Part shown: piece after piece, positions 1,965 through 8,988 of the stretch
How positions within the stretch are numbered: position 1 is the first letter of the stretch
How the letters are laid out: each line of letters opens with the position of its first letter
Virus genome (UHGV): UHGV-0134920
Length of the DNA stretch: 10,725 nucleotides
Reading direction: 5' to 3' (one strand)
Source of the DNA: a virus
The notes under the pieces: generated by a model
What the model was told of the DNA's origin: nothing
Seen by the model: only the letters and a program-made list of their open reading frames with translations
Databases searched by the model: none
Made by a program: the position numbers and the translations under genes

Positions 1965-1996
1965 CGGGTATCACAGATATGACAAACACGAAAAAA

Positions 1997-2023
1997 GCGG
2001 CCCCGATATGGAGCCGCCTTTCT
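1997..2023. terminator. weak candidate bidirectional terminator between convergent alpA and minus-strand genes
   Basis: 5-bp GC stem GCGGC (1997-2001) / GCCGC (2013-2017), preceded by A6 (1991-1996) and followed by CTTTCT. Short stem, so weak. Confidence 0.25.
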
Positions 2024-2112
2024 GAACAATTAACCCGCTGCGCCTTATGTGTATGTGATCCCAAACATAAGCACGGGGATGATAGCCGCTATCAGGCTGG
2101 TGGGCAATGCAA

Positions 2113-2301
2113 TCAGTCTGGTTCAGTTCGTTGCCATACCTGCAATGAGCGCTTTTCCCTGTACTCTTTAAGGAATTGCTCAAGGGCAAAAGCACATGGC
2201 GCGAATCTTTCTGATTCATGCTCTATCTTTCTGCGCCGTCTTTTCCGTGCCGGTGATAATGTTTTGGTCAATTCTTTATCGGTCATTGTGTTGTCCTGCA
2301 T
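2113..2301 (-). CDS. doubtful small Arg/Lys-rich ORF (62 aa) downstream of the minus-strand regulator
   Basis: Sits in the only sizeable gap without a + strand gene (1965-2343), upstream of the candidate terminator on the minus strand. No convincing RBS; contains RKRRRRK. Confidence 0.2.
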   Translation of the reverse strand: MQDNTMTDKELTKTLSPARKRRRRKIEHESERFAPCAFALEQFLKEYREKRSLQVWQRTEPD

Positions 2302-2343
2302 AGCAATGCGCCGTAATACCTTACACCACGGCGCTGGTGATGG

Positions 2344-2649
2344 TTACTCCTGCTCTTTGGCCTTGCGGCGCTGTAGTTCTTCACGAGCGATGGCGATAAG
2401 TTGCCCGAGTTCTTCCGTAGCTTTAATACCAATTTTTTCCACTTGCGCCAATGCATCGAGAGAAGAAATCAGAGGATTTTCACTGCTTCCTTCTGCCTGG
2501 CGGCGGGCGATCTCCCCGCGCATGGCGGTTACTATGAATCCGGCGTTGCTTTCGCCGTCCAGTTTTACGGATTCCATGCCATCAAAAGCATCATGTGGGA
2601 TACGAATTGAAATCTGTTTTGATTTGTCGTTGATAGTGTTTTTTGCCAT
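2344..2649 (-). CDS. putative DNA-binding regulator (possibly ribbon-helix-helix), candidate island repressor
   Basis: 101 aa from ATG (reverse complement of 2647-2649) with GGAGAA RBS just upstream on the minus strand. N-terminal KQISIRIP segment is compatible with an RHH beta-strand. Divergent from the Icd/Ash/primase operon and adjacent to palindromic operators. The ORF-track start at 2688 is probably an upstream in-frame extension. Confidence 0.6.
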   Translation of the reverse strand: MAKNTINDKSKQISIRIPHDAFDGMESVKLDGESNAGFIVTAMRGEIARRQAEGSSENPLISSLDALAQVEKIGIKATEELGQLIAIAREELQRRKAKEQE

Positions 2650-2671
2650 GTGCATTCTCCTAAACAAAAGA

Positions 2672-2747
2672 TGTGATTCAGTATACACAAAAAAGAATCA
2701 CAAAAAACACTTGATCTGTGATTCAGTTGAATTTAATTTAAATCACA
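2672..2747. promoter_or_regulatory. divergent promoter/operator region with two related palindromic operators
   Basis: TGTGATTCAGT at 2672-2682 pairs with GAATCACA at 2695-2702; TGTGATTCAGT at 2717-2727 pairs with AATCACA at 2741-2747. GTATAC at 2681-2686 could give a minus-strand -10-like TATACT. The region lies between divergent start codons at 2649 (-) and 2837 (+). Confidence 0.6.
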
Positions 2748-2836
2748 CCTCAGTAAGAGGATGTAAACGACAACGCCCCGAACTGTTTGCGGCAGTAGCG
2801 GGGCGTCTAACCAAACCGTTAACAGGAGTAACGATT

Positions 2837-3034
2837 ATGGCTGGAACACAGCATACCCCACGTCTGGCGCACACACAAACTGCCTTTGTGTGGCGTTTTC
2901 TGGCACTGAGTGCCGGAGAATCTCAAATCATCCACGTAACCGCCTGGACGGAACGCGAAGCGCGTAGCCGTTGCCCGTCCGGTTGTGTTGCTGTATTCGC
3001 TGCCCGTATTCGCCAGGGGTCACATCATGCGTAA
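2837..3034 (+). CDS. Icd-like small protein (host cell division inhibitor-like family of P4-like elements)
   Basis: 65 aa; AGGAG RBS at 2824-2828; sequence FVWRF...TEREAR...ARIRQG recalled as the Icd-like signature (from memory, unverified). The upstream part of the 351-aa track ORF is rejected. Confidence 0.6.
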   Translation: MAGTQHTPRLAHTQTAFVWRFLALSAGESQIIHVTAWTEREARSRCPSGCVAVFAARIRQGSHHA

Positions 3035-3488
3035 AAACCGCTTGCAAAAAATTATCACGGGGCTGTATGCTTCCCCCGTCGCCCACATGGCGACCGGGTT
3101 TAGCAGCCTGAATACATCTGGCGGACAGCCGCCCACATCCGATAAGCGGTTTTTTTGTGTCCGTAAACCTACCCATACCCGCATTATGGCGGGGCGTAAC
3201 GGGGGAGCCTTTGTGCTCGCTGGTTTCCAGATGACCAGTCTGCTAACCCTGTTACGTCTCGCCACCATGTTTAGCAGCGTAGTAGCGAGACTCCTTAAAA
3301 TTCATCTGGGAGCCTTTCACATGGCTGTATTCGCACGCCCTTATTTTGTCTGGCGCTTTATGCAGTGCCTGACAGACAGTATTGCAATATTCACCGTTAC
3401 CGCTGCCACTGAGCGCGAAGCACGTGCACAGCTGCCGCACGCACATCTGATTTTTGTCGCCCGTATTCGTCAGGGGGTAGGCTTATGA
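3027..3488 (+). CDS. Ash-family-like protein with C-terminal Icd-like module
   Basis: ATG at 3027 overlaps the upstream stop by 8 nt. C-terminal ~55 aa (YFVWRFMQ...TEREARAQ...ARIRQG) are paralogous to the preceding 65-aa protein. An internal start near 3321 (MAVFARPYFVWRF) cannot be excluded. Stop overlaps the next start (ATGA at 3485-3488). Confidence 0.55.
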   Translation: MRKNRLQKIITGLYASPVAHMATGFSSLNTSGGQPPTSDKRFFCVRKPTHTRIMAGRNGGAFVLAGFQMTSLLTLLRLATMFSSVVARLLKIHLGAFHMAVFARPYFVWRFMQCLTDSIAIFTVTAATEREARAQLPHAHLIFVARIRQGVGL

Positions 3489-3715
3489 GCCAGGAAATCA
3501 CACTACAACAGGCAGCAGAACGCGCCCACCAAATCGAAGTTATTTGCGCACTGGCAGAGGATTACCCTGGCATGATGACCGACAGCGAATCAGGGGCAAT
3601 CATCGGCTTACTTAAACGCCTTAGCGGTGAGGTCTGCGTATTCCTGATCGATGAACAGGAAAGAAGAACGCTTATTTCTAACGAAAAAAAATGCGGAGGG
3701 GTACATGTGCAATAA
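3485..3715 (+). CDS. hypothetical protein (76 aa)
   Basis: Translationally coupled (ATGA overlap); CAGGGGG RBS-like sequence upstream; no recognisable family. Confidence 0.45.
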   Translation: MSQEITLQQAAERAHQIEVICALAEDYPGMMTDSESGAIIGLLKRLSGEVCVFLIDEQERRTLISNEKKCGGVHVQ

Positions 3716-6491: not shown

Positions 6492-6806
6492 ATGCGCATA
6501 CATCAAAATAACTTAACAAACATATCAGCCGAAAACATGAATCAGGGGCGACAAATGGCCATAATTCACAGAGACAGAACACAGGCAAAATATAAAGCGT
6601 TAGACATGACAGAGCTTTCCCTAAAGGTGGCAATCAGAACGATAGACCGCCACACGCGGGAAGGATACGCGAAGGAACATCCCGACCTGATAAGCGCATT
6701 CATGACCACGGCGGCGGCAAACTTTGCCACGCTGACAGAACGGGAGATTGCCGAAGCGGAACAGGTAACAACCATCAACGTTAAAACCGGAGAGCAGACA
6801 GCATGA
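6492..6806 (+). CDS. hypothetical protein (104 aa)
   Basis: GAGGGGGG RBS at 6475-6482; stop overlaps the ssb start (ATGA at 6803-6806). Alternative internal starts at 6536 and 6555. Confidence 0.5.
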   Translation: MRIHQNNLTNISAENMNQGRQMAIIHRDRTQAKYKALDMTELSLKVAIRTIDRHTREGYAKEHPDLISAFMTTAAANFATLTEREIAEAEQVTTINVKTGEQTA

Positions 6807-7213
6807 CAGCACAGATAGCAGCTTACGGGCGGCTGGTGGACGACCCGCAGGTAAAACAGACCAGTAAGGGCACACCGATGACGCTGGCGCGTATGGCGGT
6901 ATCGCTGCCATGCAGCCAGGCACAGGATGGACAGGCGACGTTATGGCTATCGGTCATCGCATTTGGTAAGCAGGCCGACTTCCTGGCTAAACATCAAAAA
7001 GGCGACGTTGCCAGCGTATCCGGCACGATGCAGGTCAGCCAGTGGACCGGACAGAACGGGGAAACGCGGCAGGGCTGGCAGGTTATTGCAGACAGCGTAA
7101 TCAGTGCCCGTGCGGCACGTCCTGGCGGGAACAGACGCAAGACCACAGGCACACAGGGTAATCAGCCACCAGCGGGAGGCGATGCCCCTTACGGTGATGA
7201 TATTCCGTTCTGA
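6803..7213 (+). CDS. ssb: single-stranded DNA-binding protein
   Basis: 136 aa; OB-fold SSB pattern (AYGRLVDDPQVKQTSKG...WLSVIAFGKQADFLAKHQKGDVASVSGTMQVSQW), Gly/Pro/Gln-rich linker and acidic C-terminal tip ...GDDIPF typical of bacterial and phage SSBs. Confidence 0.85.
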   Translation: MTAQIAAYGRLVDDPQVKQTSKGTPMTLARMAVSLPCSQAQDGQATLWLSVIAFGKQADFLAKHQKGDVASVSGTMQVSQWTGQNGETRQGWQVIADSVISARAARPGGNRRKTTGTQGNQPPAGGDAPYGDDIPF

Positions 7214-7223
7214 GGGGGTGAGG

Positions 7224-7472
7224 ATGGTACATGACCGCATAGCGGAGGAACTCGAGGCAAAAGGCTTTTACCGGAGGGCGGCGGCACGATGGGGTGAAGT
7301 CATGCAACTGGTGGAGACAGACAAGGAACGGCATCAGGTTACGATGCGACGGCTGGAATGTTCCAGGAAGGCACAGAGGCCACCGGAGCCGCCAACGGAG
7401 AACTATGCAGACCTGAGAAATGCAGTAAATCGCACTTACGCAGACATGGGGCTGAGCAAATTAGCAGAGTAG
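7224..7472 (+). CDS. possible PerC-family-like transcriptional regulator (tentative)
   Basis: 82 aa from ATG 7224 (alternative GTG 7218). Motif EELEAKGFYRRAAARW resembles the conserved PerC/Pch segment as recalled. The N-terminal part of the 122-aa track ORF overlaps ssb out of frame and is rejected. Confidence 0.4.
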   Translation: MVHDRIAEELEAKGFYRRAAARWGEVMQLVETDKERHQVTMRRLECSRKAQRPPEPPTENYADLRNAVNRTYADMGLSKLAE

Positions 7473-7933: not shown

Positions 7934-8988
7934 TGACAGTAAAAGCAATAGCACTTAACACTAACCAGCTTTTTGCGTACCTGAATCGCGAGGATATTGC
8001 GGAATTTAAATTCAGTCCGCTGTTTACCGCGCTGTTTTTCCCGAACGTGGCGACATTCAACACACAGGACATCATGTTAGATAACCTGGATATTGAAGAA
8101 GTCACTATGTCGGCGTTTTGTTCGCCTATGGTGGGTAGCCAGGTTCAGCGCGATAAAGGGTACGAAACAAGCATTATTCGCCCTGGCTACATGAAGCCAA
8201 AACACGAAATCGATCCATTAAAAACAATAATGCGCATGGCTGGAGAAGATCCAGCACAGCTTAACGACCCTACCTACCGCCGTATGCGCCTGATTACTGG
8301 CAACATGCGCCGCCAGATAAACGCCATTAAAGCGCGCGAGGAATGGCTGGCGGTAAATGCGGTAACGACCGGAAAAAACATCATTGAGGGCGAAGGCATA
8401 GAGCGCTATGAAATCGACTGGAAGATACCGGAAAAAAACATCATAGAGCAGGCCGACGGTAAAAAATGGTCAGAGCAGGACAAAGACATACACGACCCAA
8501 TCTATGACATTGAGCTATACGCAGATCAGGCAGGTTGCCCCGCAAACGTCATGATTATGGGCGTTGATGTATGGCGCATGTTACGCAGCTTTAAAAAATT
8601 CCGTGAACTGTACGATCTCTCCCGTGGTTCAGAATCCGCCGCAGAGCTGGCATGTAAAAACCTGGGCGAAGTGGTGAGCTTTAAAGGCTATCTTGGTGAT
8701 CTGGCCCTTATCGTCTATTCCGGCAAATACACTGACAGCGACGGCACAGAAAAATATTTCCTTGAGCCTGATTTGCTGGTCCTGGGCAACACCAACAATA
8801 AAGGGCTGGTGGCCTATGGTGCGATTATGGAACAGGAAGCGGTAAGAACGGGCGCAACGCAAAACATGTTTTACCCGAAAAACTGGATTGAGGACGGCGA
8901 TCCGGCGATTGAGTACGTGCAGACGCACAGCGCACCGCAGCCGGTTCCGGCAGATATTCGCAAATTTGTTACCGTCAAAATTGGTTAA
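7933..8988 (+). CDS. major capsid protein, lambda gpE family
   Basis: 351 aa; colinear similarity to lambda gpE as recalled (FKFSPLF..LFF; RPGYMKPKHEIDP; EDPAQLNDPTYRRMRLITGNMR; KGYLGDLALIVYSGKY; VLGNT; YPKNW; SAPQPVPAD). Confidence 0.9.
   Translation: MTVKAIALNTNQLFAYLNREDIAEFKFSPLFTALFFPNVATFNTQDIMLDNLDIEEVTMSAFCSPMVGSQVQRDKGYETSIIRPGYMKPKHEIDPLKTIMRMAGEDPAQLNDPTYRRMRLITGNMRRQINAIKAREEWLAVNAVTTGKNIIEGEGIERYEIDWKIPEKNIIEQADGKKWSEQDKDIHDPIYDIELYADQAGCPANVMIMGVDVWRMLRSFKKFRELYDLSRGSESAAELACKNLGEVVSFKGYLGDLALIVYSGKYTDSDGTEKYFLEPDLLVLGNTNNKGLVAYGAIMEQEAVRTGATQNMFYPKNWIEDGDPAIEYVQTHSAPQPVPADIRKFVTVKIG

Follow-up and report, generated by a model that had tools for sequence, protein, structure and literature searches.

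A predicted P1/P4-type antisense-RNA immunity cassette beneath an Icd-like reading frame of a phage-inducible chromosomal island

Immunity by antisense RNA is known from phages P1 and P7 and from P4, whose RNAs (c4 in P1 and P7, CI in P4) belong to one Rfam family, RF01695 (C4). The RNAs of this family are stable, approximately 77 nt long and processed from a longer transcript, with RNase P acting at the 5' end. The system of P1 and P7 is their immI operon, reportedly described by Citron and Schuster in 1990. Here we analyze a relative of these systems in UHGV virus genome UHGV-0134920 (10,725 nt, one strand, 5' to 3'; hereafter, the window), where a preliminary description had read positions 2837 to 3488 as a tandem duplication of an Icd-like division-inhibitor gene, free-standing in the first copy and fused to an Ash-like protein in the second. 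On the evidence of its sequence, the region is a P1/P4-type antisense-RNA immunity cassette; it varies a switch that is already known and does not represent a novel fusion of proteins. The island that carries it is a Gram-negative phage-inducible chromosomal island (PICI) bearing capsid genes; its gene content includes an integrase, an AlpA-like protein, a D5_N/DUF5906 primase, SSB, PerC, a lambda-type capsid E gene, decoration protein D and Nu1.

The immunity region of the satellite phage P4 comprises seqA, the CI RNA, seqC and two nested genes, eta and kil. In the P4 record (NC_001609), the Rfam C4 model matches the CI RNA at 8420-8507 (-) with 74.9 bits, and the isrK and c4-a1b1 models match seqA at 8615-8705 (-). 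Both RNAs are contained in a long open reading frame (ORF; 8168-8812, -) whose stretch over the CI RNA matches the Pfam Ash family (PF10554, 59.7 bits) and whose last 65 residues are Kil (76.1 bits on NF033153). A constitutive promoter lies inside this frame, eta, and the terminated transcript yields CI; Kil is a truncated form, and full-length Eta, which is coupled to the gene before it, is made only from an upstream promoter (Forti et al., 1999, J Bacteriol 181:5225, as cited in PMC10111431). According to the same source, translation of Eta prevents termination.

The isrK-orf45-anrP region of Gifsy-1 (Salmonella; PMC4825925) is similar to the layout predicted for the window in having a short terminated RNA with an upstream target, followed by a processed RNA of ~80 nt. 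In Gifsy-1, a small ORF overlapping the C4-like RNA is translationally coupled to the antirepressor gene (PMC4825925). The window differs in that its isrK match (RF01394, 3078-3156) reaches 36.8 bits against a gathering threshold of 50, its ORF ends in an Icd-like module and no antirepressor gene follows. Within PICIs, PMC10111431 reports Rfam matches to C4 and isrK in several Gram-negative PICIs and helper-embedded PICIs, in the variable zone from alpA to the replication genes, and proposes a role in immunity for them.

A C4-type RNA and its target sites

The features of the region are the following (SD, Shine-Dalgarno sequence):

2837 to 3034 (+): icd#1, a free-standing gene for a 65-aa Icd-like protein (NF033153), first gene of the rightward operon, with SD AGGAG at 2824-2828 and no C4 target sites
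3002 to 3019 (+): left 18-nt repeat, GCCCGTATTCGCCAGGGG, with the codons for ARIRQG and the probable SD for ATG 3027; left border of the 457-bp cassette
3027 to 3488 (+): long ORF of 153 aa, analogue of P4 eta, whose ATG overlaps the icd#1 stop (ATGCGTAA); it crosses the cassette, and its last part is the Icd-like module
3042 to 3071 (+): candidate internal constitutive promoter, TTGCAA-N18-TATGCT, analogue of P1 P51b and P4 PLE
3065 to 3121 (+): upstream target region a1/b1 (Rfam c4-a1b1; aligned with the annotated a1/b1 of P1)
3127 to 3156 (+): terminator-like hairpin followed by seven T, at the position of the isrK/seqA terminator; region kept in P1 and P7
3182 to 3269 (+): C4-type antisense (immunity) RNA, recognized by Rfam RF01695, fold, covariation and homology to c4 of P1 and P7
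3271 to 3314 (+): downstream target region a2/b2 (exact complements; aligned with a2/b2 of P1)
3321 to 3488 (+): icd#2, nested gene for a 55-aa Icd-like protein, analogue of P1 icd and P4 kil, with an ATG aligned with the annotated P1 icd start
3459 to 3476 (+): right 18-nt repeat, GCCCGTATTCGTCAGGGG; right border of the cassette and probable SD of the next gene

The Rfam C4 model matches 3182-3269 over its full length (72.7 bits against a gathering threshold of 45; E 5e-13), and blastn of 3090-3279 against the c4 loci of P1 and P7 returned 75-79% DNA identity. The RNA is predicted to fold into a long closing stem with two hairpins (minimum free energy -46.1 kcal/mol; z = -6.2), leaving a' (CTGCTAA, 3240-3246) unpaired and b' (CCAGATG, 3227-3233) in the loop of hairpin 2. 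Both heptamers have exact complements on either side of the RNA: upstream, a1 (TTAGCAG, 3100-3106, in a hairpin loop) and b1 (CATCTGG, 3115-3121); downstream, a2 (TTAGCAG, 3271-3277) and b2 (CATCTGG, 3303-3309). The predicted b'-b2 duplex (13 bp, -22 kcal/mol) extends over 3302-3314 and covers the SD of icd#2 (GGGAG, 3308-3312). Three points are established at the level of sequence: there is an RNA gene with the C4 structure, its two single-stranded segments match both pairs of targets exactly, and b2 overlaps the ribosome-binding site of icd#2.

We collected related loci (numbered L001 onward) from one-genome-per-species contigs and from viral contigs with a pattern that left a' and b' free. 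Exact 7-mer complements of a locus' own a' and b' were present on both sides of the RNA in 131 of the 133 unique loci with enough flank, spanning approximately 23 b' classes; when a foreign b' class was substituted as a control, complements were matched in 0.5% or less. Within the clade of the window, sequences that are 90-98% identical elsewhere differ jointly at b1/b'/b2 or at a1/a'/a2. Further, a 21-sequence alignment that includes the P4 CI RNA contains compensatory changes in 13 of 26 stem pairs. Thus, the matched, co-varying targets and the covariation of the stems argue that the RNA system is functional and that the island has a specificity of its own (b = CATCTGG).

The alignment with the annotated P1 and P7 loci (NC_005856 and AF503408) is colinear through a1 b1, the terminator-like hairpin, c4, a2 b2, icd and the TTATGA shared with the next start, with indels of 1 and 2 nt. 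At the positions that align, the P1 record carries annotations for a1, b1, c4, a2, b2, icd and promoter P51b. The likeness includes order and spacing, the 75-79% identity over a1b1, c4 and a2, the placement of b2 over the icd ribosome-binding site, the TTATGA overlap and the position of the -10 element. TATGCT (3066-3071) aligns with the -10 of the annotated P1 promoter P1c4/P51b (TATAGT), at equal spacing to CCGTCG; in L003 and L004, TTGATC-N18-TATGAT is kept at this position despite a diverged spacer. Because it falls below the threshold of the promoter scan, the internal promoter is offered as a candidate; the promoter and terminator scan of the window returned nothing useful. The two systems differ in b (CATCTGG here, GTTAGTG in P1, GATTGTG in P7), in the frame through c4 (open here, closed in P1) and in the next gene, which here encodes a 76-aa protein of unknown function and not the antirepressor Ant. 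The window also has no C1 operator and has an extra Icd-like gene upstream.

One further site was considered and rejected as a target. The heptamer CGTCTGG at 2861-2867, in icd#1, could pair with b' through one G-U pair; we discarded it because it is unchanged in L161, although the b' of that locus (CTACAGT) differs.

Three side observations concern the wider family. In the alignment of the window with L052, L078 and L002, the a-site triples switch together, TTAGCAG/CTGCTAA/TTAGCAG versus TTGACAG/CTGTCAA/TTGACAG, between sequences that are otherwise ~93-98% identical. Both a alleles associate without restriction with a wide range of b' classes, a sign that specificity may be combinatorial. C4-type RNAs with matching targets on both sides are also common in Acinetobacter (L007, L009 to L015 and L018 to L036, mostly of that genus), where searches with hidden Markov models found no Icd-like domain downstream; a different leader gene may be controlled there. 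Lastly, an Aeromonas rivuli island (L027) carries an Rfam int-alpA RNA (RF02996, 59.4 bits, at 491-559) in addition to its C4 cassette; the window has no int-alpA match at E <= 1.

The reading frame that crosses the RNA

The part of the 153-aa ORF that had been described as an Ash-like protein fused to Icd is codons 1-98 (3027-3320). It overlies the C4-type RNA gene and its four target sites, and all three Rfam matches fall inside it. Pfam PF10554 (Phage_ASH; gathering threshold, 26 bits) has no match to the 153-aa ORF at E <= 1, nor to the homologous frames of L017, L027 and L157 at E <= 10. The absence of a Pfam match rules out direct Ash membership for the frame of the window and for those of the Budvicia, Aeromonas and P4-like E. 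coli islands. Codons 1-98 by themselves match nothing in Pfam or PHROGs. Homologues of the long ORF form 292 clusters, and the NCBI name "ash family protein" applies to 2 of 120 among the matches listed.

Within the clade of the window, and with the a and b sites excluded, the variable columns are distributed over the three codon positions as 12/16/11 in codons 1-98 versus 12/15/28 in icd#2, so the N-terminal stretch lacks the third-position excess of the Icd part; the comparison rests on 39 and 55 variable columns of related sequences and has modest power. The test is informative within clades only, being saturated on the whole satellite set. The phase of the C4 RNA relative to the Icd frame is 0, 1 or 2, depending on the lineage. 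By these patterns, the N-terminal stretch behaves as RNA sequence and is not constrained as protein.

The layout of the frame is that found in P4, where translation of the long ORF counteracts Rho-dependent termination. In both, the start of a long ORF overlaps the gene before it; the ORF then runs across a target site bearing a terminator (in the window, a terminator-like hairpin) and across an RNA of the C4 family, and its last part is an Icd-like peptide with an internal start and a stop overlapping the start of the next gene. In the window, the start overlaps the stop of icd#1 and is preceded by CAGGGG at a distance of 8 nt; this junction is kept across the clade, with changes in sequence, and by analogy would couple the two genes. 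Because the layouts match, we read 3027-3488 as the analogue of eta and icd#2 as the nested analogue of kil or icd. The coupling partner differs (an Icd-like gene here, the alpA/ORF88 homologue in P4), as do the length of the frame (153 aa versus 197-199 in P4, without a Phage_ASH match here), the spacing between target and RNA, which is much shorter here, and the element itself, a PICI with a D5_N/DUF5906 primase and not a P4-type element. Because P4 eta covers the CI RNA, where the Pfam Ash match lies, and ends in Kil, a frame of Ash plus Icd is canonical and not new; an Icd-like end belongs intrinsically to frames of the Ash/Eta type, and the proposed fusion falls with it.

The long frame is open in every satellite-type locus inspected, comprising the window clade, P4-like islands with a toprim primase, Budvicia and Aeromonas elements and also P4 eta. 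Given this openness and the eta layout, we dropped the possibility that the ORF is a mere spurious call. We also consider it unlikely that 3035-3320 is never translated, as in P1, with the open frame an accident of the conserved RNA and only the 55-aa icd#2 product made. Consistent with such an accident, the P1 and P7 homologues have in-frame stops and an icd start that aligns with 3321 (in most P1-like loci, stops close the frame just 5' of icd), and conservation is higher in the RNA region than in the coding sequence around it. By our own estimate, which is not a tool result, a frame over random b-site sequences would be open in ~80% of cases without selection, and the openness across ~14 b' classes is therefore weakly significant by itself. 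Several observations argue instead for translation. The overlapping start junction and its SD are retained even as the sequence changes (ATGGATAA with AGGAGG in L003 and L004), and indels occur in frame-restoring pairs: in L003, a +1 indel farther 3' compensates for the -1 indel at b1, and the ~40 codons between them are read in another frame that is still open. The frame is also open in deeply divergent satellites, P4 among them, where eta nonsense mutations cause premature termination (Forti et al., 1999, as cited in PMC10111431).

If the frame is translated, its product could be a genuine two-domain protein, Ash-like and Icd-like, with a functional N-terminal part (e.g., a toxic or abortive-infection effector) in which the RNA gene is merely embedded. 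The open frame, the single protein called by PGAP and other pipelines and the many homologue clusters would agree with this, yet we find it quite unlikely: codons 1-98 show no codon periodicity, and their most variable residues are the a and b sites, which change with the RNA loops. The other-frame codons of L003, the three phases across lineages, the closure of the frame in P1-like phages and the lack of any Pfam or PHROG match point in the same direction. Transposon insertions and the gene removal of a preprint would destroy the RNA gene too. The interpretation that we favor, by analogy with P4, is that the frame over the cassette would be kept open in order to be translated and not for the protein that it encodes.

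Two Icd-like genes and their shared 3' joint

The preliminary description was right about the presence of two paralogous Icd-like modules, one in ORF 2837-3034 (+; 65 aa) and one in ORF 3027-3488 (+; 153 aa counted from the first ATG), with the shared pattern FVWRF...TEREAR...ARIRQG. BLASTP aligned residues 17-61 of the first protein with 107-150 of the second (23/45 identities, 51%; E = 1e-11). All pass the 25-bit cutoff of NCBIfam NF033153 (phage_ICD_like), with 64.8 bits for icd#1, 49.9 bits for the 153-aa ORF, over residues 107-149 only, and 53.8 bits for the 55-aa icd#2. An ATG occupies the position equivalent to 3321 in every locus listed for that comparison; an icd#2 start at ATG 3267 was ruled out, as P1 has no ATG there and its icd start aligns with 3321. 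The near-identical nucleotide stretch reported before each overlapping start was also borne out, coordinates included: GCCCGTATTCGCCAGGGG and GCCCGTATTCGTCAGGGG are identical at 17 of 18 positions (94%) and are spaced 457 nt apart (repeat family D4). In each 18-mer, CAGGGG lies 7-9 nt 5' of an ATG that overlaps the stop (ATGCGTAA at 3027-3034 and TTATGA at 3483-3488); because CAGGGG precedes the overlapping ATG in both cases, the 18-mer can reasonably be read as the ribosome-binding site of the next gene.

The two modules thus stand in tandem, as proposed, but simple local duplication does not account for them: icd#1 occurs alone in most related islands and icd#2 travels with the RNA cassette. 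Orthologues of icd#1 are found singly in the C4-less islands L162, L163 and L165, the first Icd gene lacks the RNA cassette in most related E. coli islands, and icd#2 is always accompanied by C4. L163 and L165 share the YlcI/YnfO-family gene and the control region described below and have one Icd-like gene coupled directly to the downstream small genes, with no C4 found by Rfam; the single Icd of L165 ends in ARIRQGVGL, and the window is 98.9% identical to L165 from 3453 onward. In a set of 5426 complete E. coli genomes, 886 had a match to the 3' half of icd#1 but only 69 had it joined to a1b1, and 184 genomes contain at least 80% of 3027-3488. The left 18-mer is retained at the 3' end of Icd bodies that otherwise differ.

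Because the modules are 51% identical and the 18-mers 94%, recombination at the joint fits better than duplication followed by divergence. The position of the 457-bp cassette between two copies of the conserved Icd 3' joint is, as far as the sequence comparison goes, best explained by such recombination. A local tandem duplication of a division-inhibitor gene with copies diverging toward different host or helper targets is very unlikely on these grounds and on the separate distribution of icd#1 and icd#2, even with the ~460-nt distance between the paralogues, their near-identical 3' ends, the true tandem of whole cassettes in some relatives and the annotation of P1 Icd as a reversible inhibitor of cell division counted in its favor.

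Related islands carry one or two copies. Single-Icd islands without C4 exist, as noted above; loci of Type B, which include the window, have one C4, and those of Type A (L003, L057, L078 and L118) have two complete tandem cassettes, each with target site, C4 and Icd-like gene, ~480 nt apart. In L003, the sole locus where two cassettes were compared, the C4 RNAs lie at 2779-2866 and 3259-3347 and their loop sequences differ; in the first cassette the loop is AGTCCTTACAGT and the targets, which cover the SD of that cassette, are ACTGTAAGGA. We also considered whether the window has a degenerate remnant of C4 5' of icd#1 and rejected this, as Rfam at E <= 1 finds one C4 only; Type A relatives do carry a C4 there.

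A separate observation comes from L004 (E. coli 2018-166, 2996-3446), where the upstream Icd copy reads as the downstream type does (FTWRFMQCL...) and a truncated copy lies downstream. This arrangement looks like a recombination product between two Icd copies at the shared 3' joint.

Against the available part of PMC10111431 and a limited search of the literature, the leader Icd gene as coupling partner, the 18-nt joints, the tandem double cassettes and the breadth of b' classes appear undescribed.

Control of the early operon and annotation of the locus

Three further features flank the two Icd-like genes:

2344 to 2649 (-): divergent gene of the YlcI/YnfO family (NCBIfam NF041551, 65.2 bits), candidate protein repressor of the rightward operon
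2672 to 2749: operator-like repeats, TGTGATTCAGT at 2672 and 2717 (+), a copy at 2692-2702 (-) and AATCACA near 2741-2749
3485 to 3715 (+): gene for a 76-aa protein at the position of P1 ant and P4 epsilon, with an ATGA overlap with icd#2 (PHROG 1478, 100.4 bits, function unknown)

The YlcI/YnfO-family gene likely starts at ATG 2649 and not at GTG 2688; PHROG 6522 matches its residues 13-113, and the gene is at the equivalent place in the related islands L161, L163 and L165. The operator-like motif occurs 8 times in the window, where 2.4 occurrences would be expected, and three of the 8 lie together in the control region, which also holds inverted repeats I1 and I7. The repeats may therefore be candidates for operators bound by the repressor. 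The 76-aa product has no Pfam or NCBIfam match and is without an Ant, BRO or KilA domain; an orthologue of its gene follows the single Icd gene in L165.

We regard it as probable that this control region of the early (replication) operon combines a leader icd#1 module with the 457-bp antisense-RNA cassette, of P1 immI/P4 cI type, and an eta-like read-through. The first module would be the promoter-proximal icd#1 behind the operator-rich region that faces the YlcI/YnfO-type repressor gene. The second would comprise, in order, the internal promoter, a1/b1, the terminator-like hairpin, C4, a2/b2 and the nested icd#2 coupled to the next gene. In the repressed state, as in P1 and P4, the internal promoter would give an untranslated leader that is processed to C4; C4 would pair with a2/b2, translation of icd#2 would be blocked and transcription would end before the replication genes. 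Once the upstream promoter fires, icd#1 would be translated, ribosomes would restart at ATG 3027 and the eta-like frame would be read through the cassette, a read-through that would override the RNA block and allow expression of icd#2 and the downstream genes. The two Icd-like modules would then be paralogues joined by cassette exchange at their conserved 3' ends.

Some results weigh against this model. The c4-a1b1 match (3065-3114) scores 45.5 bits, just under its gathering threshold of 46.7 (E 4.6e-9), and the isrK match lies well under its own, which is passed in the relatives L157, L027, L057, L078 and L118 and in P4. The hairpin at 3127-3156, with a 6-bp stem and -6.5 kcal/mol, is weak as a terminator. 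Both the upstream promoter and the internal one, which agrees with the consensus at 8 of 12 positions, stay below the threshold of the scan. The gene after icd#2 is not an antirepressor gene, unlike in P1. To these are added the modest power of the codon-position test and the ~80% openness expected by chance, both given above.

A broader proposal, possible but doubtful at present, is that an Icd-like gene with the ARIRQG/SD/overlapping-start end is a portable joint for serial control modules of early operons, which would make the region a two-key switch. Here, a protein-repressor lock (the YlcI/YnfO-controlled promoter and icd#1) would precede an RNA lock (C4 and icd#2); in L003, L057, L078 and L118 there would be two RNA locks. 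Translation arriving from the first Icd gene would serve as the override signal for the second lock.

The neighborhood offers some side observations. Between the operators and the SD, the 5' leader of icd#1 contains an 8-bp GC-rich hairpin (ACGCCCCG...CGGGGCGT; 2773-2806) with no T-run after it. Upstream, a 351-codon open frame (1979-3034, +) in phase with icd#1 crosses the opposite-strand YlcI/YnfO gene, and PGAP calls an "icd-like protein, partial" upstream in L165 that overlaps the YlcI/YnfO gene; the frame may have remained from a longer one of eta/Bro type, or be there by chance. Farther downstream, a gene for a PerC-family transcriptional activator (7104-7472, +; 121 bits) overlaps the 3' end of SSB (6803-7213) when counted from its first listed start, and the real start is probably further downstream.

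The main value of these results is corrective, since antisense-RNA immunity is already known for P1, P7 and P4 and has also been reported for Gram-negative PICIs. In the E. coli RefSeq loci L001 to L004 and L157 to L161, PGAP calls the long frame a "host cell division inhibitor Icd-like protein" and gives no noncoding-RNA feature for C4; in L003 the long frame is called "frameshifted", and a 1653-nt "Icd-like" ORF runs across the first C4 copy. The P4 record (NC_001609, our L164) carries at 8168-8584 (-) an obsolete coding sequence, "cI gene product (AA 1-137)", labelled "transcriptional repressor"; its Pfam Phage_ASH match falls on residues 21-84, over the CI RNA. Both Icd copies of the window are matched by PHROGs 1743 and 6196, whose label, "transcriptional repressor", was probably inherited from this coding sequence. 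The Pfam "Ash" family and the PHROG repressor labels appear to descend from the obsolete P4 "cI protein" ORF.

For the biology of these islands, a leader Icd gene under protein repression precedes an RNA cassette here, and some relatives carry the RNA cassette twice; this serial order suggests that control modules are stacked. With its ~23 co-varying b' classes, the system would seem to be modular and to diversify in specificity, and it may govern the mutual silencing of satellites and phages. If the proposal of a portable joint and a two-key switch is true, the diversity of b' classes would set which co-resident satellites and P1-like phages cross-repress one another.

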